From a phage, in sequence record PZ386958.1: a stretch of 64,000 nucleotides of DNA; one strand, given 5' to 3'. Within the stretch, counting starts at the first letter, position 1. Each line of letters begins with the position of its first letter. The notes beneath the pieces were generated by a model. That model saw only the letters and a program-made list of their open reading frames with translations, made no database searches and was not told where the DNA came from. The position numbers and the translations under genes are program-made. Positions 4,880 to 48,720 of this stretch are shown one piece after another.

Positions 4880-5436
4880 TTAGTGTACCTCATACCAGCT
4901 TTTACCAACCTTACCAGTACCTGTAACAAGTGTTTCTTTCTTAAGACCTAAGTTCTTAGAAGCTTGTCCATAATACCAGTCAGTAACTGCTTTCACTTCT
5001 GCCGTCATACTTTCTGGACATTCCCAACTCGTCTCGTCGTGATAGGAGCACAATAAACGAGCACCTATAGCTGGCTTGCGACCGTTCAACTTCATCAAAC
5101 CTTCGTCAATCATACGACGGCAAGCAAGGTTAATTGCTTCATTCTGAACCTGTGCTTCCGAACTCATCAGGAGGTAGTTCAGTAGTTTATGTGGAGATTT
5201 GCACCATATCCATGCTCCAGCGACCCTGATATAACCACCTTTAGCAATTGAAGAGTTCTTCCCGAAAACCTCTTCCAGAGCCTTTTTAGACGCCTTAAAA
5301 TCGGCTTCTAAGCTATCAAGTAACTTCTTAATCTTTGGCAGACGCATATAGTAAGTTTGTTTAGTCAATGCACCTTCTTCCGTAGATGATGCCTTGATAG
5401 TTTTTGCAAACTTCTCGTCACCTGCACCGAACAATA
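4880..5436 (-). CDS. DNA polymerase (family A, T7 gp5-like), exon 2
   Basis: Begins (L)FGAGDEKFA = end of O-helix/motif B (T7: FLYGAGDEK); contains motif C YHDE and C-terminal GKVGKSWYEVH (T7: GKMGPNWAICH). The track's start M is a TTG codon inside the exon. Confidence 0.8.
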
Positions 5437-7877: not shown

Positions 7878-7907
7878 ACATTACTGCAAAAAATTATAAA
7901 AAGCAAG

Positions 7908-7930
7908 TTGACAATGTACTTGACAAGGTG
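7908..7930. promoter_or_regulatory. Conserved tandem -35-like element TTGACAATGTACTTGACAAGGTG in divergent intergenic region
   Basis: Two overlapping TTGACA hexamers in AT-rich region between divergent operons; near-identical 23-mer recurs at 56503-56528. Confidence 0.4.
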
Positions 7931-8104
7931 TTAATCTTTGCGAAGTGGGTTTTTACTTAAAAGGTTACTTAACAGTTTAACTATACAGATACTTTAAAAC
8001 TCTTAAAAGATTATTTAATAGCTTTTAAAAAGCTTTAAAGTATAACGTATAGAATACGTTAAGATAAAAGATTAAAACTTAATAGTTACTTAAAAGAGGC
8101 TTAC

Positions 8105-35834: not shown

Positions 35835-36719
35835 ATGAAACCAATGTTCAAATATCTTGGTGGTAAAACAAGAATATTAAAAGAGTATGAGCGTTTAGGT
35901 GTCTTTCCAGACAACTGTAAAAACTTCTATGACCTGTTTTCAGGTGGTGGTTCAGTAGCTATCTGGGCTTATAACAGATACCCAGAGGCAAAAGTGTTTA
36001 TTAATGAGATAAATAAACATATTATAGGTCTTTACACAACTTTCAGAGATGACTATGAAAACTTCATGGAAGAATTTGAGTACTTGTCAAAGAGGTACTT
36101 AGCCTTACCTATGCAGGAAGAGTATGCCGTGAAAGGCCAGCGTCATAACCGTCTACGCTATAAAATGTATTACAGTGTAAGAGAAGAACTTCTTTTGCTT
36201 GGTGAAGAAGGAACATATGACTACAGGTACTATGCCAGACAGTTTTTCCTTCAAAAACTAAGTTTTGGTGGAGTATGGCAGACTACTAAAGAGATGAGAG
36301 GTCACTATGCAACACCTTGTGGGTATTTACTGGAAGAAGAGATTTTCTTCACAAAAACTAAAAAATCACTATCCGAGTTTTACAGTTTTATCACCGATGA
36401 AAGGGTAATACTTAGCAGTGAACCTTATGACAGGGTTGACATAAAACATGGAGAAGACACAGTTATTTACTGTGACCCTCCATATATCAACACCAACCAG
36501 AAATATGGTGTAAAGTTTGACATTGAGATGTCTGTAAAATTATGCGAAGATATGGTTTCTTGGGGGGAGTTAGGCTCTAAAGTTTTGATGTCAAACTCTC
36601 AGTGGGATGGATGGGCAAACCTAATTCCTGAAAATTTTAACTTGACAGAGGTTAGTCATTCATACACAATACATGCACAGAGAAGCAAAGATATTAGCGA
36701 AGTAATTATTCACAACTAA
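35835..36719 (+). CDS. DNA N6-adenine methyltransferase (Dam-like)
   Basis: 294 aa; N-terminal FKYLGGK and catalytic DPPY (VIYCDPPYINT). Confidence 0.65.
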   Translation: MKPMFKYLGGKTRILKEYERLGVFPDNCKNFYDLFSGGGSVAIWAYNRYPEAKVFINEINKHIIGLYTTFRDDYENFMEEFEYLSKRYLALPMQEEYAVKGQRHNRLRYKMYYSVREELLLLGEEGTYDYRYYARQFFLQKLSFGGVWQTTKEMRGHYATPCGYLLEEEIFFTKTKKSLSEFYSFITDERVILSSEPYDRVDIKHGEDTVIYCDPPYINTNQKYGVKFDIEMSVKLCEDMVSWGELGSKVLMSNSQWDGWANLIPENFNLTEVSHSYTIHAQRSKDISEVIIHN

Positions 36720-36730
36720 GGTATCAAGTT

Positions 36731-37543
36731 ATGGCAAACAGCATCAATGTAGCACTGAATGGCAAGGTTGTTAAAATTCACACTAAGATTATCAGTGTCG
36801 AGGATTTTCTTAATGAAAAACGTTACAAAGAAAACCCTCGTCAACGAAATACACTTAAGCGTCTGAAAAGCAAACACCTTAATGGTGACGTATCACCAGA
36901 CCAAACAGTAGTTCATGTGGCTAAGTTCGGTAGTTCACTGTTCATCATTGATGGGCACTCACGTCGAGAGGCATGGAAAGTTGGTAACCTGACACGACCA
37001 GAAAACTTGATTGCAGTTATATACCATGTGAACTCCATATTGGATGTCACAGATTTGTACACTCATTTTGACTCTGAGTTAGCAAGAGAAAAACCTTCAG
37101 AAGTTTATTACGGAAATATGAAGATGATTTCTTTCAACCCAGAGTCAGAACTGATGAAAGCATCTTGGGCAACTGCTATTAAGTATGTTGCTGCATATTA
37201 CGGTGTGCAACAAGTCTCTAACACTGAAACAGTTAAATACCTTAATGACTTTAAAAATGAGCTGGAACAAATTGATTCTCTTGAAGTACAGCTTAAAGGT
37301 GTAGTAAACGCAAAACGGAAGTATTCTTCTGGGATTCGTGCAGCAATGTTAATTACACTACGCCTATATGGTGATGCTGCATTTTCCTTTTGGGAAGACT
37401 ATAATGACTACTGTGAAGGTATGTCTAACAAATATGTTACAGAGGCATACCAACTTGCATTACAAGCTGGTCGCGGAGCACAGGCTGATAAGTTGTTGAT
37501 GAATCAAGCGATTTCACTTGTCAACTATTACAGTCAAGAATAA
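36731..37543 (+). CDS. ParB/Srx-like nuclease domain protein
   Basis: 270 aa; FIIDGHSRREAW resembles ParB-type DGxHR motif. Confidence 0.4.
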   Translation: MANSINVALNGKVVKIHTKIISVEDFLNEKRYKENPRQRNTLKRLKSKHLNGDVSPDQTVVHVAKFGSSLFIIDGHSRREAWKVGNLTRPENLIAVIYHVNSILDVTDLYTHFDSELAREKPSEVYYGNMKMISFNPESELMKASWATAIKYVAAYYGVQQVSNTETVKYLNDFKNELEQIDSLEVQLKGVVNAKRKYSSGIRAAMLITLRLYGDAAFSFWEDYNDYCEGMSNKYVTEAYQLALQAGRGAQADKLLMNQAISLVNYYSQE

Positions 37544-39110: not shown

Positions 39111-39896
39111 ATGGGTATTGTAAAAATCATCAATGGGGATATCTTCTCCGCATTTGATAAAGGTAAGTTTGATATCATTGGTCACGGTTGCAACTGTATG
39201 AACTTAATGGGTTCAGGTATCGCTGACAAGATTTCTAAACTTTACCCAAAAGTGTATGATACTGACACAGAAGTTTACCTGTTTGCAGGCGGCATTCGTC
39301 ACAAACCCTGTGAAAATTTACTAGGTAATTTATCTGTAGCACGTTTAAAACAAGGTCGTATAGCTAACCTTTACACCCAACTTCATACTGGTAAAGATGC
39401 CCGATATAGTGCTTTAGAGTCATCTTTGAAACAGCTTAACAGATACTGTGAAGTCAATCAGTTGAAGAAAGTCGGGTTACCTATGATTGGTGCAGGCATC
39501 GGTGGGCTAGACCCTCAAGCCGTCACAGTTATCATTAATCAAGTGATGAAGAGTGTAGATGTGTATCTGTATGTCTATGAAGGAGAGATGTACCACAAGT
39601 TACGCTCAGGTTGGAAGAACTACTGTGAACCAGAATACTTTGCAGGTGTAGTAACGTTCACAGACAATACAGTTACCCTCTTCAGACGAAGAAAAGGTAA
39701 GATACATCAAAGTAACCCTCCGGTTGAAAAGATGTCTCTTAGTAACGCTCTAGTTACCCACCTGTCGAAGAGCAATCACAGGATTGCAGTAACATTTGGT
39801 AGTGATGCAGACACTTATATCTATGCAAGAACTGATGAGGATATCGAGACAGTTTTCTCTTCGCCAGAAGTTACCTTCTTAGACGCAAAGAACTAA
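39111..39896 (+). CDS. Macrodomain protein (TARG1/OARD1-like ADP-ribose hydrolase fold) with C-terminal extension
   Basis: 261 aa; GDIFSAFDKGKFDIIGHGCNCMNLMGSGIADKI parallels the TARG1-type segment (EGDLF...LAHCIS.DC.MGAGIA). Confidence 0.5.
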   Translation: MGIVKIINGDIFSAFDKGKFDIIGHGCNCMNLMGSGIADKISKLYPKVYDTDTEVYLFAGGIRHKPCENLLGNLSVARLKQGRIANLYTQLHTGKDARYSALESSLKQLNRYCEVNQLKKVGLPMIGAGIGGLDPQAVTVIINQVMKSVDVYLYVYEGEMYHKLRSGWKNYCEPEYFAGVVTFTDNTVTLFRRRKGKIHQSNPPVEKMSLSNALVTHLSKSNHRIAVTFGSDADTYIYARTDEDIETVFSSPEVTFLDAKN

Positions 39897-39974
39897 GAAA
39901 CTCTGTAGAGTATTCACAATAGACTAAGCCTTTCTTATCTGGTAAATTTTTCAGGTAAGGAGGGCTTTTTCATT

Positions 39975-40180
39975 TCAGGATTGTGCAGGTAGAGTTCTGT
40001 AGAGAAATCTGTAGAGAGAATTTTGAACTCCAAAGAGAAAATTCATTTTCAAACTGTGCAGGTAATCTCCAAAGAGCTTTTTCATTTTCAAAACGTGCAG
40101 ACCCCGCTCAGGTCGGGCAAGAAAAATCATTTTAGAATTGTGCAGGTAGGTGGGTGCAGGTGGGGATGTCGCCATTTCTC
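39975..40180. repeat. Direct-repeat (iteron-like) cluster: about 4 copies of TCATTTTCA(A/G)(A/G)N(T/C)GTGCAGGTA plus TCTGTAGAG triplet
   Basis: Visible at about 39962-39995, 40043-40075, 40080-40105, 40125-40170 inside a 508-bp gene-free region. Confidence 0.5.
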
Positions 40181-40379
40181 ACAAGGCTACCACATCTGGA
40201 AATAAAAGTCAACAGAAAAATTTGTAGTGGATTGAAAAATAATTCTTGATTGTAGTTCTGTTTTGTGGTAGTCGCGCGCACCCGTTTCATTACAATCTTT
40301 GCAAAAAATATTTTTAAAATTCCTATTGACTCTTTGAGTATGGTTATCTAATATTTGCATCAGACGGGCAATCAAGCCC

Positions 40380-40404
40380 ACTTCCTAAACTGGAGAATCT
40401 AAAA
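40380..40404 (+). promoter_or_regulatory. Conserved translation-initiation module CCTAAACTGGAGAATCTAAAAATG (first copy)
   Basis: Same 3' module as the cassette-array repeat units. Confidence 0.4.
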
Positions 40405-40611
40405 ATGCTTTACAGTCGCGAATTGATGGTTACAACTAACGTTAACACAAAGGCAAAACGTTTTTACATGCAAATCTGTGGCGTATGGTCCAGAATATCA
40501 GAAGCTGACTATTGCAACTATGTAGAAACGGCTATTAATTCTAATTGCTATCTGACAAGAAATACAAGAAAGTACATAAGACAGACAGCAATTTACTACT
40601 ACGATAAATAA
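40405..40611 (+). CDS. Cassette-array small protein
   Basis: 68 aa; followed immediately by repeat unit. Confidence 0.4.
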   Translation: MLYSRELMVTTNVNTKAKRFYMQICGVWSRISEADYCNYVETAINSNCYLTRNTRKYIRQTAIYYYDK

Positions 40612-40697
40612 AGTACTTTACAATGGGCTTATAGTTCGATAAAGTAAGCCCCAGATAAAGAGCTTTACCACTCAATCCTAAATTGGAGAACTAAAAA
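40609..40697 (+). repeat. Cassette repeat unit, class A (hairpin GGGCTTAT..ATAAGCCCC plus RBS)
   Basis: TAAAGTACTTTACAATGGGCTTATAGTTCGATAAAGTAAGCCCCAGATAAAGAGCTTTACCACTCAATCCTAAATTGGAGAACTAAAAA; begins at stop codon of upstream gene. Confidence 0.7.
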
Positions 40698-41078
40698 ATG
40701 GCATATCGTGCACCTAAATTCATCAACAAAGACAACTTTCGCAACGCACTGGAGAAGTCACTTGATGAAAATTTTAAAGGTAACATTATTGTTGTTCACT
40801 CGTTTAATTTCAAGTATGATATCAACGGGAATAGAATCAACCATTACACGGCAACCATGTTAGATGGCACACTATCAAGTGAAAAAGCCGTACTGAATGC
40901 ACTTGCTGGACGTGGTAAAAACCTGATAAAATGCGATAAGAGACGTTATCAGGGTGGCGCATATGGTTATGATGATGCTGTTTATCATCTTGAAAATATG
41001 GGCTATCAAGTAGAAAAAGCTGGAGTGTCTCAAATAATCGGTAGTGATGGTTATGTAACAATCTTCAAAATTAAATAA
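40698..41078 (+). CDS. Cassette-array small protein
   Basis: 126 aa. Confidence 0.4.
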   Translation: MAYRAPKFINKDNFRNALEKSLDENFKGNIIVVHSFNFKYDINGNRINHYTATMLDGTLSSEKAVLNALAGRGKNLIKCDKRRYQGGAYGYDDAVYHLENMGYQVEKAGVSQIIGSDGYVTIFKIK

Positions 41079-41164
41079 AGTACTTTACAAGGGGCTTATA
41101 GTTCGATAAAGTAAGCCCCAGATAAAGAGCTTTACCACTCAATCCTAAATTGGAGAACTAAAAA
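41076..41164 (+). repeat. Cassette repeat unit, class A
   Basis: Near-identical to 40609-40697. Confidence 0.7.
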
Positions 41165-41422
41165 ATGGCTATTATCAAAAACGTTGTAATTGCTGCAAAA
41201 ACTCGTGATGACGCTCGCGTTATGGCTAAAAAGTTATGCGGAAAAGTGGTTGACAACGGAAAACAATCTGCTGTAAGGTGGGGCGTGAAGGCTGATAAAC
41301 AGTTAACTTTAAAACGCAGTTCAAACAACCTTTTTAAAGGTGTAAAATCACTCGGTAAAGTGAACGTTTTTACCAAAAAAGGCTATAAAATGCACTTATC
41401 ATTAACTGGCAATTTAATCTGA
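41165..41422 (+). CDS. Cassette-array small basic protein
   Basis: 85 aa. Confidence 0.4.
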   Translation: MAIIKNVVIAAKTRDDARVMAKKLCGKVVDNGKQSAVRWGVKADKQLTLKRSSNNLFKGVKSLGKVNVFTKKGYKMHLSLTGNLI

Positions 41423-41510
41423 TAAAGTACTTTACAAGGGGCTTAAAAGTTGATATCTTAAGCCCCAGATAAAGAGCTTTACCACTAAATCCTAAACTGG
41501 AGATTCAAAA
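41420..41510 (+). repeat. Cassette repeat unit, class A variant
   Basis: Hairpin GGGGCTTAAAAGTTGATATCTTAAGCCCC then CAGATAAAGAGCTTTACCACTAAATCCTAAACTGGAGATTCAAAA. Confidence 0.65.
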
Positions 41511-42023
41511 ATGAAAACTGTAGACGCTACCTTTGAAGTTGTAAAAGAAAAATTCACCATTATTTATGAAGCTGTCAATTGCTTTGAAGCAAGCCATAAT
41601 CTTGATAATTGGAAGTTTACAGATGACCATCAAGGCGGTGTGACGATTAAAAATCCTAACTGTCAGCGTAATGATTTTAAATATGCAATTCCTTTAAATT
41701 ATAGCCTTAAGCAGCTTTCTAGTGACTATGCAAAACAAGGCCGGGAAAACCCATCAAAAGAGGCTTATATCAGCTTACAGAAAGAACTAGAAAGAGATTT
41801 AGAGGCTTCAGAGTACAACCTTGCCGCGAAAGTTGTGGATGCAAACGGTAACACGGTTTTAGAAAGTTTTTATCTTGGTTATGCTTTCGATTGGTGCTAT
41901 CGTGACGGCGATGATTTAGAGGATAGACTAAAAGAAGAGGTGAGCAATTCAGACGCAGAAACTGAAGTATTAGAACGTTTGGAATCGTTGAAAGACTCAG
42001 TGATGAATATCTTTAAGAACTAA
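41511..42023 (+). CDS. Cassette-array protein (acidic)
   Basis: 170 aa. Confidence 0.4.
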   Translation: MKTVDATFEVVKEKFTIIYEAVNCFEASHNLDNWKFTDDHQGGVTIKNPNCQRNDFKYAIPLNYSLKQLSSDYAKQGRENPSKEAYISLQKELERDLEASEYNLAAKVVDANGNTVLESFYLGYAFDWCYRDGDDLEDRLKEEVSNSDAETEVLERLESLKDSVMNIFKN

Positions 42024-42115
42024 ATAGATTTCTTTACACGGGGCTAACAAGCTGATATAATAGCCCCAGATAAAGAGATTTATCAAATAAAACCCTTAAA
42101 CTAGGAGATTCTAAA
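42021..42115 (+). repeat. Cassette repeat unit, class A variant
   Basis: Hairpin GGGGCTAACAAGCTGATATAATAGCCCC then CAGATAAAGAG...CTTAAACTAGGAGATTCTAAA. Confidence 0.6.
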
Positions 42116-42412
42116 ATGAAATTATCAAATCAAGTGCGTGAAAATCTGAGCAAATTACTCAACAAAATTGATTTCATTGAAACATCAAGAAATAGTCATG
42201 ATGTTATGGAATGGTTACACGGCAAAATAAAAGGCCGTCGTGTAGTGATTTGTTTATGGAATAGTTGCAGGGAGTATAAAAAACCTGTATTGCAAGTAAA
42301 TATTTATGATGATACTTTTAAAAGTCCAGTAAAGTCTAAAAGCGATTTATTAGAATCCTATGAGATAACTTTAAATGGCAAAGTATCACGTAAAGAGGAA
42401 ACACCATGTTAA
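42116..42412 (+). CDS. Cassette-array small protein
   Basis: 98 aa. Confidence 0.4.
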   Translation: MKLSNQVRENLSKLLNKIDFIETSRNSHDVMEWLHGKIKGRRVVICLWNSCREYKKPVLQVNIYDDTFKSPVKSKSDLLESYEITLNGKVSRKEETPC

Positions 42413-42738
42413 TGACTGGTATCACTGCAATCATTGCCATTTTCGCGCTATATAAGGCATATAAAGCCTATAATCTAGCAAATAAGGCAATCACACAGCA
42501 GGTTAGCAATAACCTTGTAGAAAGCTTTCTAGGGCGCCTCAGTGATGAGCAAATAAAGCGGCTAGAGATGAGCTTTAGATTTAAAGCGAAAACCTATCAG
42601 ATTAGTGACATTTTCAAAGATGACTATCAACTTATTGATGATTATAATTCACTGATAAACGCTTTAAATATCAGTGACTTAAAAGACTACTACGCTGTAA
42701 TTGTTCAAGAATTGAGCAAACGAAAACAAAGTGTTTGA
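42406..42738 (+). CDS. Cassette-array small membrane protein
   Basis: 110 aa; N-terminal hydrophobic helix; overlaps previous stop. Confidence 0.4.
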   Translation: MLMTGITAIIAIFALYKAYKAYNLANKAITQQVSNNLVESFLGRLSDEQIKRLEMSFRFKAKTYQISDIFKDDYQLIDDYNSLINALNISDLKDYYAVIVQELSKRKQSV

Positions 42739-42827
42739 CACTGATTTTTAGATAGGCTAAATTACACATCAACGGGGAGGGAATGACCTTCCCCACTAAA
42801 TAAAGTCCTAAACTGGAGATTCTGAAA
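42736..42827 (+). repeat. Cassette repeat unit, class B (TTGACA box plus GGGGAGGGAATGACCTTCCCC hairpin plus RBS)
   Basis: TGACACTGATTTTTAGATAGGCTAAATTACACATCAACGGGGAGGGAATGACCTTCCCCACTAAATAAAGTCCTAAACTGGAGATTCTGAAA. Confidence 0.7.
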
Positions 42828-43100
42828 ATGTATACTACTAACAACGGTCGCACCTTAAATGTCACCTTGCGTCACTATGTAGACGGTGTGATGTGCTTTG
42901 AAGATTTACGGGCTGAGCAACACATCTTAAATTGGCAAGTTGCAGGACTCCAAAAAACTGCTACAGGATACGGGAAAAAGATTCCAACCAGTTGGAAAGT
43001 ATACTACGAAGGACGTTTGCGCAGAATTTATCAGGATGTGCAAAGCAATAGTGCATCTAGTTACATCATAGTAAAAGGTAAAAAGCTGCATTTAGTATAA
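42828..43100 (+). CDS. Cassette-array small protein
   Basis: 90 aa. Confidence 0.4.
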   Translation: MYTTNNGRTLNVTLRHYVDGVMCFEDLRAEQHILNWQVAGLQKTATGYGKKIPTSWKVYYEGRLRRIYQDVQSNSASSYIIVKGKKLHLV

Positions 43101-43186
43101 AGTACTTTACAAGGGGCTTATAGTTCGATAAAGTAAGCCCCAGATAAAGAGCTTTACCACTCAATCCTAAATTGGAGAACTAAAAA
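43098..43186 (+). repeat. Cassette repeat unit, class A
   Basis: Near-identical to 40609-40697. Confidence 0.7.
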
Positions 43187-43591
43187 ATGGCTATTAATAA
43201 CCGTGAATTATCAATTTTAAAAGCACGTTTGACCGTTAACCGGATTAATGTTATCACATCATCAGCACCAGATAAAACACTGCAAAACATTATTGGGAAG
43301 ATTCAAAGTGTTATCTTAGACGTTGAAAGCGTAAAAAATTCATTGGCTGACGTTGCAGCAGGTATCACACTAGACGGTGCGCAATATGAAATGTCCGACA
43401 TGTTAGGCAAATCTAAGGTAATGAATATAGAGTTAGATTTGAAAATGTTCCGATTTGCTGTTAAAGTGTGGCTATCTGTCGAGTATGATGCTAACTTTGC
43501 AATCGCTGACTTTTTCGCCACTTGGTTGCAGCGTAATTTGACTAATCATGACTTCCGCGATATCTGTGATGCAATTTATGCAGAACTCTAA
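43187..43591 (+). CDS. Cassette-array protein
   Basis: 134 aa. Confidence 0.4.
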   Translation: MAINNRELSILKARLTVNRINVITSSAPDKTLQNIIGKIQSVILDVESVKNSLADVAAGITLDGAQYEMSDMLGKSKVMNIELDLKMFRFAVKVWLSVEYDANFAIADFFATWLQRNLTNHDFRDICDAIYAEL

Positions 43592-43699
43592 AAAAAAAAA
43601 AATTTTGTTGACACTGATTTTTAGATAGGCTAAATTACACATCAACGGGGAGGGAATGACCTTCCCCACTAAATAAAGTCCTAAACTGGAGATTCAAAA
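43589..43699 (+). repeat. Cassette repeat unit, class B (preceded by A13 run)
   Basis: Identical core to 42736-42827. Confidence 0.7.
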
Positions 43700-43903
43700 A
43701 TGGCTATTATTAATGGTTTAACCATTGAAACTACACACATCAAAGATGTCAAAGTTGGTGATATAGTCCTTTCCCACGGCGTAGAAAAAACTGTCACTGC
43801 AAAGGATATCAAAGAGGATTCTTTCATGGGTAGGACTCTCTTCGGTGATTCTTATTGCTTAGGCTATCTTGCAGTTTTAAAAGTTGTCAAAAATAACAAA
43901 TAA
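43700..43903 (+). CDS. Cassette-array small protein
   Basis: 67 aa. Confidence 0.4.
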   Translation: MAIINGLTIETTHIKDVKVGDIVLSHGVEKTVTAKDIKEDSFMGRTLFGDSYCLGYLAVLKVVKNNK

Positions 43904-43990
43904 AGTACTTTACAAGGGGCTTATAGTTCGATAAAGTAAGCCCCAGATAAAGAGCTTTACCACTCAATCCTTAAACTAGGAGATTCAAAA
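43901..43990 (+). repeat. Cassette repeat unit, class A
   Basis: Near-identical to 40609-40697 (3' part CCTTAAACTAGGAGATTCAAAA). Confidence 0.7.
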
Positions 43991-44239
43991 ATGATGAACT
44001 ATTTCAATATCCCTGATACCTGCCGACTGTTGACACAAGAAGAAAATTTGGGTAAACCTTTTCTTTACCACATGCCAGATAGCACACCAAAAACTTATAG
44101 TTACAATGTTAACCGTTTTACCGCATACGCTGCAAAGAACGGTTATAAGTTGGTTACTCAAAAAGTAATGCTGGTTACAAGCGCTGACGAGATTCCTACG
44201 GTTGCAGTTAAACTAATTTTCTCAAAGAAAGTTAAATAA
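43991..44239 (+). CDS. Cassette-array small protein
   Basis: 82 aa. Confidence 0.4.
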   Translation: MMNYFNIPDTCRLLTQEENLGKPFLYHMPDSTPKTYSYNVNRFTAYAAKNGYKLVTQKVMLVTSADEIPTVAVKLIFSKKVK

Positions 44240-44326
44240 AGTACTTTACAGGGGGCTTATAGTTCGATAAAGTAAGCCCCAGATAAAGAGCTTTACCACT
44301 CAATCCTTAAACTAGGAGATTCAAAA
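44237..44326 (+). repeat. Cassette repeat unit, class A
   Basis: Near-identical to 43901-43990. Confidence 0.7.
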
Positions 44327-44868
44327 ATGAAATGTTTTCACGGTACTACTCAAGAAAATTTCCTCAACCTTATTAATAACGGTGATAAACCATCAGGCGC
44401 ATGGAATTGTTCTGATATGGATGGGAATTTTTACGTTTACCAGAGAATAAAATCTATGGCGACGATGAGGAAGAAATAATCTTTGAAGGTATCCAGCAAG
44501 CTCTGGGCAATGCCACTATCACCGCAGCTTTTCAGATGAAAACTCAAAACATTGTTATCTTGGAACTTGAGATTCCAGAAGATGAGCTAAACGATGATTA
44601 TTCTTGTGATAATATGTCGAGCGTGGCAAGTTTTACAGAATATTTCGATTTAAATTGGATTAAAAAGGTTTACATCACTGAATTTAATGCTATGTATTCG
44701 CCTTTTTGTCTTCCTTCACTGGATAACCCAAATATGAATTATCTTGATGAGACATTAGAACTACTTGCTAAAAGTGTTCAACAATCGGACAGTATTCAGG
44801 TTTTTTGTGACATCATGGACACACTAACGGAAAACATCGCAGAAGAGGATTTAAAGAGCTTTTTCTAA
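44327..44868 (+). pseudogene. Cassette gene split across two frames (frameshifted gene or programmed -1 frameshift candidate)
   Basis: ATG at 44327 opens a 50-codon frame (MKCFHGTTQENFLNLINNGDKPSGAWNCSDMDGNFYVYQRIKSMATMRKK) that stops at 44479; the -1 frame is open from about 44393 to the stop of the track ORF 44536-44868; no repeat unit between the parts. Confidence 0.4.
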
Positions 44869-44899
44869 AAACCTATGCAATCACCTTATAAACACTATT

Positions 44900-44920
44900 C
44901 AGCCCCTTGTAGGGGCTTTT
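44900..44920 (+). terminator. Hairpin (cagccccttgtaggggctttt)
   Basis: GC stem followed by T-run. Confidence 0.45.
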
Positions 44921-44934
44921 AAGAGGCTTAAATC

Positions 44935-45168
44935 ATGCTTACAACCGTTTATCTTATCCTTTCTATATGTAATGGTCATTCATGCGATTTTAAAGGGCTT
45001 GAAGAGTTTACAGGAAGTAAAGAAAATGCTATTCAAGTTTGCCAGATAGCGAGACAAGACTACCCCGCCAGTGATGACATACAATGCTACTTTAAGACAG
45101 AAGATGAAGACGGTATCTATTTCGATAGTGTAGATGGTCAATATGAAATAATTATAGAAAAAGACTAG
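44935..45168 (+). CDS. Cassette-array small protein
   Basis: 77 aa. Confidence 0.4.
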   Translation: MLTTVYLILSICNGHSCDFKGLEEFTGSKENAIQVCQIARQDYPASDDIQCYFKTEDEDGIYFDSVDGQYEIIIEKD

Positions 45169-45257
45169 ACAAGCCTGATAAAAATCTGTAAATTATCAAT
45201 CAACGGGGAGGGGATGACCTTCCCCACTAAATAAAATCCTAAACTGGAGATTCTAAA
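45166..45257 (+). repeat. Cassette repeat unit, class B variant
   Basis: ...ATCAATCAACGGGGAGGGGATGACCTTCCCCACTAAATAAAATCCTAAACTGGAGATTCTAAA. Confidence 0.65.
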
Positions 45258-45599
45258 ATGGCTTATGTAACTGTAATTACCAATAAAGAAAATTCATCTT
45301 GGTCAACTCAAGTCAGTGATAAGATGTCACCTATGCAGTGCCTAAAATACTTTGAGCAGTGGAACAAAGGCGAGGATGTCAGCCCCTTTCAAGTAATGCA
45401 GATTATCCATACAGATAACGAAGGAAACAAAACGACACTTAATAGCGAGTATTACGCAAATCGTTTTGAGAGTCGAGTTGAAACGATGAAGGGGCTGCGT
45501 GAGGCCGGATATGGGCACATTGCCGCCTTGTTATGGGATAGCCTGCTAAAAAATCAGCGTATCAGCTATGTAAAACCTGAAAAAATATTCATCAGTTAA
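45258..45599 (+). CDS. Cassette-array protein
   Basis: 113 aa. Confidence 0.4.
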   Translation: MAYVTVITNKENSSWSTQVSDKMSPMQCLKYFEQWNKGEDVSPFQVMQIIHTDNEGNKTTLNSEYYANRFESRVETMKGLREAGYGHIAALLWDSLLKNQRISYVKPEKIFIS

Positions 45600-45628
45600 T
45601 CAACAACTTACAAAAAACTTTTAAAAAA

Positions 45629-45665
45629 GTGTTGACAATACCCCTTGACATTGGTAACTTTGTTC
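45629..45665 (+). promoter_or_regulatory. Promoter-like tandem TTGACA boxes (gtgttgacaataccccttgacattggtaact)
   Basis: Two -35-like hexamers in intergenic region. Confidence 0.35.
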
Positions 45666-45749
45666 GAGGGGGTTTATCTAAAAGGGATTCACTTAAAAGA
45701 TTCTTTATAGATAAGCTCAAAAAATTACTTGCAATCAACTATCAAAACA

Positions 45750-45819
45750 AGTAAATTACTAATCAACGGGGAGGGATAACCTCCCTACTAAGTAAAGTCC
45801 TTAAACTAGGAGATTCAAA
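45750..45819 (+). repeat. Cassette repeat unit, class C (GGGGAGGGATAACCTCCC hairpin plus RBS)
   Basis: GTAAATTACTAATCAACGGGGAGGGATAACCTCCCTACTAAGTAAAGTCCTTAAACTAGGAGATTCAAA. Confidence 0.65.
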
Positions 45820-46350
45820 ATGAACAAGTTCAAAGCTATCAACTTCATTCGTTCAAATGCTGTAATGTCAAAGCCTGTTAAAGATACCTATGAATTTCGT
45901 TGCAATGGTGTACACTTTGCAACCATCACTAAATCAGAAAACGGGGCTTATTACGTCCATCGTCGTAATGTTTCTACTGTTGTAGTTTCTCATTTTATGC
46001 AAGCTGTCGCGGAACTTCTCCCGATGTTTTTAGGTCTTTACTTAGATGAGTGTAAAAACGTTCACAACCACGTTAAAAACCTTTTAAACGGTTATAAAAT
46101 GGCTTATGAACGTTCTATCAAGTCACTAAACAAGTTTTACAATGCACCTGAAAATACTGTATCAATAGCCTATGCTGCAAATGGTGAGATGGTAAACTTA
46201 TCCAATGTGGAAGAAATCAAGCTGCATGATTTACGCCCTAGCGGTTACTCTAAGACTCTCGGTGAAGGTTTAACGTTCAATATCAAGAACTTAGAGAAAA
46301 CTTTAAAAGATATTGAAAAAGATATTGACGAGACAACCAAAAATCTGTAA
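45820..46350 (+). CDS. Cassette-array protein
   Basis: 176 aa. Confidence 0.4.
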   Translation: MNKFKAINFIRSNAVMSKPVKDTYEFRCNGVHFATITKSENGAYYVHRRNVSTVVVSHFMQAVAELLPMFLGLYLDECKNVHNHVKNLLNGYKMAYERSIKSLNKFYNAPENTVSIAYAANGEMVNLSNVEEIKLHDLRPSGYSKTLGEGLTFNIKNLEKTLKDIEKDIDETTKNL

Positions 46351-46416
46351 ATTGTCAATCAACGGGGAGGGAATGACCTTCCCCACTAAATAAAGTCCTA
46401 AACTGGAGTTATCAAG
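46346..46416 (+). repeat. Cassette repeat unit, class B
   Basis: CTGTAAATTGTCAATCAACGGGGAGGGAATGACCTTCCCCACTAAATAAAGTCCTAAACTGGAGTTATCAAG. Confidence 0.65.
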
Positions 46417-46995: not shown

Positions 46996-47002
46996 TCGAC
47001 GC

Positions 47003-47060
47003 AGCGGGGCTAAATAGCCCCAGATACCTGAACAGCCCCTATTTAAAGGGGCTTTTTTAC
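47003..47060 (+). terminator. Tandem hairpins ending in T-run (cggggctaaatagccccag ... cagcccctatttaaaggggctttttt)
   Basis: Two GC-rich stem-loops, second followed by TTTTTT. Confidence 0.55.
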
Positions 47061-48720
47061 GTCTATGTAATAACCTCTATACAATCCCTTTCCTTTCCTT
47101 TCCAGAATCTATCCCACTAATTCGATAGAATCTATCTCGTACCTTAAAAAGCAATAACTCTATAGTCTACTCTATAACCTTTTATCAAATCAACTTAAAT
47201 ATAAGCCCATAACCCGAAAGGGAAGGGCAACCGTTTAAACGCTCTATAAAGCCCTATAACAGCCTTATCAACCTAACTTAAGGGATTGCATTAACTCACC
47301 CTTAAAAGCTCTTTACAGGGCTTTATAGAGGCTTAAAAGAATCTTATAAGGTTATAAGCTTTATTATCTCGTTAGTATCTTGTGAATATCTAAAAAGGGC
47401 TTGTTAGTGTCTTAAAAGTATGTTATAGGGGCTTAAAAGTTACTTTGAAGTAGCTTAAAAGTTACGTAAAAGGGGCTATAAAGTTACGTAAATACTAGCC
47501 CCCTTAACATTTTCTTAACAATTTCTTAACAAACCCTACATAGTTATACTTTTAAGGCACTTGTTAGCAACTTGTTAGCCCCTTGTTAAATCTCTGTTAA
47601 GACCACGTAAAAGCCTTGTAAGAGTCTTTGACATAGCCTTTAAAGCTCCTGTAAAGCCCTATAAAGAGCTTTCTTCATAGTTGGGGTGTAATTACTAGGA
47701 AGAGGCTTAAAAGAGCTTACAAAGAGCTATAGAGAGCTTTTAAGAGGTATGTTTAGAGAATCACTAAGAGGGAAAGGGAACGATAAGAAAAGAGATAGTG
47801 ACCATGTTAACAGCTTGTTAAAAAGATTAAACACTTGTTAGAAACTTGTTAATTATCTTAATTGGTATTGTTACCAATCCCTACAAAATAACTCTTAAAA
47901 ATTAACTTGTTAGCTCTTGTTAGTCATCTGTTAAGATTCTGTAAAGACTATGTATCAACTGTTAAGAAACTGTTACACCCTTGTTAGTTCTGTTAAGAAT
48001 CTGTTAAGACCTTTGAAGAGTTGTTAAGAAGGTGTGAGAACTGTTAAGAGATTGTTAATGATATTTTAAAATTTTGCAAAGGGGGTGTTAAGGAGCTGTT
48101 AAGGGCTACCAAGCAGATATACATCTTCTACAGATATTTTTCAGTTCCTTCAAAGACCATAAAAAATGACTTGACAGTCTTATTTTATAAAAATTTTAAG
48201 ATTCTGAATAATTACCTATACAGTCTTTCAAAAATACAGGTAGGAACAGGCTTATAAGATACCTTGTTAGTACCGTGTTAGACCTTGTGAGATAAGGTCT
48301 GTAAAGATATTCCTGTTAAGTTTATTAAAACAGTCTATATAGAGGCTTAGTAATACCTAGTGAACAACTATAGAGAGTCACATAGCTAACCTAATGGGTT
48401 ACTGTTAAGTAACACAGGTAACCTAGAGATTAAGAGGTGTATAGGAGCTTCTAAGAGGCTATAGAGAGATGGTTAAGGTGATTGTATAGGTTGTTAAGAA
48501 GGCTTGTTAGAGGGCTTGTTAGAAGGGTTATACAGAGGGCTATTAAGACCACTAGATAGCTACTAAGATACTATATAGTACTATATAACTATATAGAGAG
48601 TAAGATTAAGAAGGTTGTTAAGAAGGATAGATATTTTGTTCACATATGATGGTGACCCAGAGGTTGGGACAACCGATAAAATTTTATAAAAAATATAAAT
48701 TTCGTAAATTTTACTCAATA
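47061..48720. repeat. Non-coding repeat-dense region: 30 or more degenerate copies of (C/T)TGTTA(A/G) plus purine-rich AGAG/TAAGAG and TATATAG runs
   Basis: No ORF of 60 aa or more on either strand; motifs CTTGTTAG, CTGTTAAGA, GGGCTTAAAAGTTAC recur throughout, often in tandem. Confidence 0.6.

Follow-up and report, generated by a model that had tools for sequence, protein, structure and literature searches.

A gene-free spacer in a Felixounavirus genome carries an array of directly repeated sites that, as judged from sequence comparison, is ancient, unique within the genome and more conserved than its neighbours, and behaves as a signal at the level of DNA. The spacer occupies positions 39897–40404 of the window, the whole 64,000-nt stretch of Felixounavirus DNA analysed here. 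It is flanked on its 5′ side by the stop codon of a macro-domain 'phosphatase' gene (39111–39896, + strand; gp012 in phage wV8) and on its 3′ side by the ATG at 40405 of the first cassette gene (40405–40611, + strand), which starts a run of small + strand genes. Over 2.5 kb around the spacer, the window is 92–95% identical to many Felixounavirus genomes of Escherichia and Salmonella, such as warpig and JohannRWettstein. At 35835–37543, the window holds a gene for a D12-class (Dam-like) N6-adenine methyltransferase (35835–36719) together with a 270-aa ORF (36731–37543), both placed between a 154-aa gene and the spanin genes. In the close relative JohannRWettstein, the 154-aa gene is followed there directly by i-spanin, and the 35835–37543 segment thus appears to be a 1.7-kb insertion.

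A preliminary description of this DNA had counted four or more copies of a motif of about 20 bp in the spacer, and four copies are indeed found, all on the + strand and with 0–3 mismatches (39970–39991, 40043–40064, 40082–40103 and 40127–40148), along with a partial fifth copy, GTGCAGGTGG, at 40154–40163. The four are the sole matches to the motif in the 64-kb window, against 0.01 expected by chance, and chance is thereby excluded as an explanation of the array. The conserved unit exceeds the 20-mer first described: a purine-rich 6–7-mer is followed by a site of about 24 bp, composed of W4–5, in the form of an A5 or T5 tract, and then TCATTTY-N6-YGTGCA-KR. Taken with their tracts, the + strand repeats are R1 (39965–39991), which reads CTTTTT-TCATTTCAGGATTGTGCAGGTA; R2 (40038–40064), AAAAT-TCATTTTCAAACTGTGCAGGTA; R3 (40077–40103), CTTTT-TCATTTTCAAAACGTGCAGACC; and R4 (40122–40148), AAAAA-TCATTTTAGAATTGTGCAGGTA. 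The sequence CTCCAAAGAG stands just before both R2 and R3, and GGCAAGAAAAATCATTTT forms the left flank of R4. All sites of the array face the same direction. Some copies have A5 before the site and others T5, with the remainder of the site keeping its orientation throughout; such a swap at fixed site orientation is what a protein that recognises DNA shape would allow, and does not suit a promoter, a peptide or an RNA.

The array is a single-locus feature. Searched genome-wide, the motif is not scattered before many genes, the distribution that the preliminary description had associated with a phage-specific promoter, and forms one cluster only in the window, and likewise one in each of two relatives with complete genomes, Pr103Blw (88,421 bp) and Erwinia phage M7 (84,694 bp). 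No match to the array motif was found in E. coli genomes or plasmids. A scan of IMG/VR with a single site returned mostly chance matches, whereas a two-site pattern proved specific; the two-site scan covered IMG/VR, JGI/ENA metagenomes and 185,579 species genomes. It recovered no true array from bacterial assemblies, and true arrays came solely from Ounavirinae-type contigs, the remaining matches being tail-fibre coding repeats or unrelated tandem repeats. One unrelated metagenome contig, Ga0049105_1006888, carries about nine tandem 38-nt units, GTGTTGACTGWTCATTTYGTACCTGTGCAG, at 4990–5330, and the TCATTT...GTGCAG spacing common to these units and to the array is a matter of chance or convergence. 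Two GenBank records under other host names, 'Staphylococcus phage SA1' (GU169904.1) and 'Campylobacter phage A132' (MG065664.1), carry a Felixounavirus spacer at 88–98% identity and are likely contaminated or mislabelled. In IMGVR_UViG_3300045988_004180, the last ~150 nt, after repeat R3, are unlike the phage spacer and are probably a chimeric join.

Across the Felix O1-type (Ounavirinae) phages, the position, order and orientation of the array are constant in Felixounavirus, Suspvirus, Mooglevirus, Kolesnikvirus and one uncultured deep lineage, and its copy number ranges from 3 to 5. The repeats of Felixounavirus, Suspvirus and Mooglevirus are spaced at 73–77, 39–41 and 45 nt, with shifts of +2 nt between genera, and phages finno and Si3 lack R2 and so have three copies. 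The Kolesnikviruses M7 (Erwinia) and SB18 (Salmonella) carry four copies of TTTTTCATTTTCAATTTGTGCATAG at spacings of 37, 37 and 39 nt. The inter-repeat spacers are likewise conserved across genera, and short flanking sequences are shared over the same distances: GGCAAGAAAAATCATTTT is the identical left flank of R4 in the window and of repeat 3 in M7, and CCGGATAG precedes one site in Si3 and finno and in M7 alike. Between the window and Erwinia phage M7, the array DNA is 73% identical over 105 bp, as compared with only 32% for the phosphatase protein, and the array is among the few stretches of the region that blastn can still align between the two genomes.

The deepest comparison comes from the uncultured contig IMGVR_UViG_3300045988_063805 (88,375 bp), which has a sister contig, IMGVR_UViG_3300045988_048813. 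Five R-like sites lie downstream of its macro-domain gene, followed by ~6.5 kb of small + strand genes, a gene-free region of TTAACA/TGTTAA repeats and then − strand genes. This contig has no DNA match among GenBank phages and shares 30–44% protein identity with Ounavirinae in syntenic genes; on these comparisons it is probably a new lineage of genus level or higher. Half of the window's cassette proteins (8/16) have a homologue in M7 and none (0/16) in the uncultured contig. The cassette genes are thus replaced among lineages, and the array outlives the genes that surround it.

Conservation of the array across genera, over a distance at which the flanking protein has lost most of its identity, argues strongly for a cis-acting protein-binding array. 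From this pattern, we consider it very probable that the array acts as double-stranded DNA and docks one sequence-specific DNA-binding protein, possibly a core protein of the phage or a factor of the host. The preliminary description had suggested a replication origin or a multi-site operator; conservation bears out the general class, a cis-acting array of protein-binding sites, and the computations do not single out the origin within it. A simple operator of the cassette promoters is a poor fit, since the sites lie 190–390 bp upstream of the first promoter only. As for the protein itself, Pfam and PHROGs scans found no initiator-like protein adjacent to the array or among ~50 window proteins, and no other DNA-binding family among the latter except one HTH_3 protein (1909–2235, − strand). 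That protein has no homologue in M7 and was rejected as the binding partner of the array on this ground. The genes that flank the array encode the macro-domain phosphatase and small ORFs without family annotation, and sequence searches of the PDB with two replication-module proteins gave no match. When the consensus sequences of IHF, Fis, CRP, OmpR, ops, Chi and KOPS were compared by eye with the sites, none fitted consistently across lineages.

It is very improbable that the repeats are instead read in transcription or as RNA, be it as tandem phage-specific promoters, as a repeat-module small RNA or as a short repetitive protein gene. Several GenBank records do annotate small ORFs over the array, including gp013 of wV8, which runs across it, and TAnnnT-like hexamers follow R1 (TAGAGT) and R2 (TAATCT). 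However, these hexamers lack conservation, with GACCCC in R3 and CATAGG in M7, and a consensus scan finds no sigma-70-type match inside the array, its only promoter in the spacer being that at 40326. The motif is also missing from the rest of the genome and hence does not represent a class of promoter, and the promoter reading was rejected. The coding reading fares no better. The ORF calls of GenBank annotators in the spacer disagree in strand and extent from record to record, and the spacer is gene-free, as first described: only ORFs of at most 66 aa lie inside it and none is conserved in frame among relatives, because the 2-nt differences in spacing between genera break every frame. Nor does the spacer resemble a structured RNA or a CRISPR-like array, since an Rfam search yields no family match in it, fold stability against shuffled sequence gives no signal on either strand (z = −0.6 and +0.1) and the inter-repeat spacers are conserved. 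The exchange of A5 and T5 tracts is, moreover, incompatible with a conserved RNA or peptide.

The array sits within an ordered series of transcription signals. Upstream, a consensus scan places an intrinsic (rho-independent) terminator hairpin at 39926–39967 (+ strand), with a 17-pair stem followed by TTTTT, at the same place as the terminator annotated in the GenBank records of wV8, KhF1 and Barry. The hairpin closes the long rIIA-to-phosphatase operon, and its T-tract is at the same time the T5 tract of repeat R1. The 3′ arm of the terminator, CAGGTAAGGAGGG, is conserved; in Mooglevirus the 5′ arm is altered with pairing still possible, as read by eye from the alignment. The triplet cluster of the preliminary description also lies in this part of the spacer, in the form of TCTGTAGAG at 39902, 39996 and 40008 (+ strand), with five copies in the whole window against 0.74 expected, but only the pair at 39996 and 40008 is partly kept in relatives. 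The first copy (39902–39910, + strand), directly 3′ of the phosphatase stop codon, is poorly conserved in relatives and probably not functional. The pair (39996–40016, + strand), in which the 9-mers are 12 nt apart, has as its counterparts a TCTGTACAGA palindrome in finno and Si3 and CTCTGGACAGA in Mooglevirus, and resembles the repeats TCTGTTAAG and TCTGTAAAG of the terminal region.

Downstream of R4 lies a variable tract (40149–40205), which in the window is a G-rich allele that includes the partial fifth copy and which many relatives replace with an unrelated C-rich allele, CCCCTCTCCCCCTCTTACTCCCC. It is followed by a conserved AT-rich block (40206–40262; AAAAGTCAACAGAAAAATTTGTAG..TTGAAAAATAATTCTTGA) and by an AT-rich UP-like stretch with a sigma-70-type promoter (40299–40354, + strand). 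The UP-like part reads AAAAAATATTTTTAAAA, and the promoter found by consensus scan, TTGACT-17-TAATAT at 40326–40354, is the first of the cassette array. The spacer ends as TCCTAAACTGGAGA-N8-ATG; positions 40383–40407 (+ strand) comprise the RBS module TCCTAAACTGGAGAATCTAAAAATG and the first cassette gene's start codon. This agrees with the earlier observation that the RBS module is shared with the downstream cassettes: TCCTAAAYTGGAGA, at 40383, occurs nine times, all within 40383–46409, and each copy precedes a small + strand gene. In the wV8 record the cassette repeats are annotated as DR_1 to DR_9. These promoter, hairpin and RBS modules between small early genes recall the mobile promoter/stem-loop cassettes (PeSL) of T4; the likeness concerns the downstream modules, with their nine copies of TCCTAAAYTGGAGA, and not the array, for the modules are another sequence family and the spacer merely ends with the first of them. 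Within the cassette block, the adjacent small ORFs 44327–44479 (50 aa) and 44536–44868 (110 aa) match one family, phrog_3303 (186 aa), the former over its N-terminal residues 1–47 and the latter over its C-terminal residues 75–184; going by these matches, the two ORFs are a single cassette gene, either split or frameshifted.

Such a layout could mean that the protein bound at the array keeps read-through from the 37-kb operon upstream out of the terminal early cassettes, or that it modulates the first cassette promoter remotely, either as an activator or as a shut-off repressor acting by looping. The array does stand exactly where the conserved intrinsic terminator gives way to the first UP-element promoter, a single T-tract serves both R1 and the terminator, and every lineage keeps the array at the border of the cassette block. 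Still, we regard a role of this kind, at the boundary or in regulation, as unlikely. The distance of the sites from the promoter (190–390 bp) is large, the other cassette promoters, eight or more, lack the motif, and a boundary function leaves unexplained why this spacer alone has sites, while insulation could be achieved by the terminator without them. The sites, read by eye, also show no dyad symmetry of the HTH-repressor type, and the one HTH_3 protein of the phage is not conserved in M7.

It is next to excluded that the spacer is a physical end of the genome or a signal for packaging, in the form of a direct terminal repeat or of a pac site. Direct terminal repeats in Felix O1-like phages measure 0.4–0.6 kb (PMC4837284, PMC8303462), among them the 608-bp repeat of UAB_Phi87, for which Bal31 digestion and run-off sequencing gave the evidence (PMC4837284), and the repeats of 581 bp in Pr103Blw and 613 bp in Ro111lw as defined by PhageTerm. 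In addition, the KhF1 record and several metagenome contigs have a terminus within the spacer. The PhageTerm-defined repeat of Pr103Blw, however, aligns to 47498–48110 of the window and not to the spacer, and the M7 record has identical ends of 444 bp that lie 7.4 kb from its array. The ends of KhF1 are low-quality sequence with Ns, the GenBank record turning to Ns at the C-rich allele after R4; two IMG/VR contigs stop at ...CTCTTACTCC in the same allele, one of them running on into Nextera adapter. Records and contigs therefore end in the spacer because the C-rich allele of the tract after R4 causes assembly breaks, which could stem from a polypyrimidine tract being hard to sequence or from strain heterogeneity there. 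On these grounds the reading as a terminal repeat or pac site was refuted. The true terminal region is 47000–48300, where genes switch strand. The terminal repeat at 47498–48110 lies there inside a gene-free stretch of ~1.2 kb rich in short repeats (CTTGTTAR, CTGTTAAG, CTTAAAAG and CTATAAAG) with 11-bp spacing.

With the right end so placed, the array always lies 6.9–8.1 kb from it, on the inner border of the early cassette block. For Pr103Blw the distance is 6.9 kb, or 7.8% of genome length; M7 gives 7.85 kb (9.3%), the window about 8.1 kb, and the uncultured lineage about 7.6 kb as measured to terminal-type repeats. Between the array and the right end, every gene points outward and is served by repeated promoter/RBS modules, and these modules are confined to the terminal segment. 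The arrangement calls to mind phage T5, in which the first-step-transfer segment makes up 7.9% of the genome and has at its border a non-coding region of repeats whose conservation exceeds that of the genes beside it (bioRxiv 10.1101/866236). By analogy, DNA entry could proceed in two steps, with the right-terminal 7–8 kb of early cassettes entering first and the array serving as a stop or pause signal, at which a membrane-associated or virion protein would hold transfer until early or host take-over proteins had been made. What speaks for a pause is that the array-to-end distance is a similar fraction of genome length (7.8–9.3%) for Pr103Blw, M7 and the window, that this distance holds even though the cassette genes are half replaced in M7 and wholly in the uncultured lineage, and that all the common promoter/RBS modules are confined to the segment that the array bounds.

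The array resembles the T5 injection stop signal (iss) in these respects: both are untranslated repeats, better conserved than their neighbours, placed some 8% of genome length from one end at the border of a set of small early genes, and conserved non-coding repeats at the inner boundary of a terminal cassette segment of ~8% are present here. There are also differences. The T5 region lies inside a 10-kb terminal repeat, as compared with 0.6 kb here, and its elements are palindromes, inverted repeats and DnaA boxes in pairs, whereas the array is made of simple direct repeats and paired DnaA boxes in inverted repeats were not found. A near-consensus likeness to the DnaA box (CTATGCACA) overlaps the sites only in the Erwinia phage M7 and is seen in none of the sites of Felixounavirus or Mooglevirus, so that DnaA boxes were rejected as a general property of the sites. 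T5 also needs its A1 and A2 proteins to resume transfer; comparison of the cassette proteins with functionally annotated PHROG families gave no match, and no function of the A1/A2 type was seen. No literature report of two-step DNA transfer was found for any Felix O1-like phage, the distance from array to end ranges over more than 1 kb, and the position is accounted for just as well by ordinary synteny. An entry pause at the array is accordingly improbable on the comparison with T5.

Among the specific roles that a protein-binding array might have, origin-type iterons are the single most likely by analogy, though we put this forward only tentatively. The bound protein would oligomerise on the four sites and distort or open neighbouring AT-rich DNA, possibly aided by transcription from the adjacent promoter, and a T7-like primase-helicase and a family A polymerase would then start replication ~8 kb from the right genome end. 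The putative origin anatomy, direct repeats in a gene-free spacer beside AT-rich DNA and a promoter, is shared by lambda ori, T4 oriE and lactococcal phage origins, and the array has at least three direct, asymmetric sites of 17–24 bp at one locus per replicon (four in the window). If the array were an essential site present once per genome, such as an origin, its conservation would be explained. The comparison with iteron origins as a class (lambda ori, T4 oriE with RepEA/RepEB, P1 oriR, lactococcal phage ori/Per) extends to clustered ~20-bp asymmetric sites in the same orientation, non-coding, in one place per genome, beside AT-rich DNA and a promoter and at the boundary of a transcription unit. 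It fails in that the array has no initiator gene adjoining or overlapping its sites, no conserved DnaA or IHF boxes, and a spacing that is not strictly phased (37–77 bp, with a drift of ~2 bp between genera, against about 22 bp), classical iterons being more tightly phased.

Several further observations weaken the origin-iteron reading. The replisome is T7-like, with a Toprim + DnaB_C primase-helicase and a family A polymerase (Pol A), and T7 replication starts from promoters and not from iterons; moreover, three copies of the repeat suffice in some phages. On an AT-rich unwinding element the evidence points both ways: the stretch at 40284–40330 is in the 99th percentile of instability in the window, which speaks for the reading, and is at the same time the promoter UP element. 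The least stable DNA of the window is found in the divergent spacer between polymerase and primase (~7981–8084) and in the terminal region at 48.2–48.7 kb, just inside the left end, and both may be considered competing candidates for an origin. The former, at ~8.0 kb, is a better AT-rich candidate than the DNA beside the array. In full, the divergent spacer between the DNA polymerase and primase-helicase genes spans 7878–8104, with its instability extreme in an 80-bp window at 8004; it carries GTTACTTAAAAG and CTTAAAAG repeats of the same family as those of the terminal region and could be an origin in place of the array or else a regulatory hub. The cumulative GC/AT skew of Pr103Blw turns at about 8, 40 and 50 kb and has no inflection at the array, and skew was set aside as an indicator of the origin, given that it merely tracks gene orientation.

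The head-to-tail arrangement also invites comparison with sopC of the F plasmid, which consists of tandem 43-bp units; the unit of the array is ~37–45 bp with one binding site in each. The sites of sopC, in contrast, are inverted repeats, and the ParB-type protein that binds them is encoded by a neighbouring gene; no ParA or ParB genes were seen here, and partition would serve no evident need of a virulent phage. Titration of a host factor and genome organisation are among the residual possibilities for what a protein docked at the array might do.

As far as the accessible literature shows, the array is previously undescribed. No description of it is found in the genome papers of Felix O1, wV8 and UAB_Phi87, and that of Felix O1, which treats promoters and terminators, lists only repeats of at least 24 bp. 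Felix O1-like phages are classical Salmonella typing phages that are widely used in biocontrol and therapy and, increasingly, as chassis for engineering. For work with these phages, the array could be used as bait for its binding protein, as a candidate origin and as a candidate entry signal, and it marks a region to be left intact when the adjoining variable cassette block is deleted or replaced. If the array titrates an essential factor, a plasmid-borne copy might act as a decoy that gives resistance.
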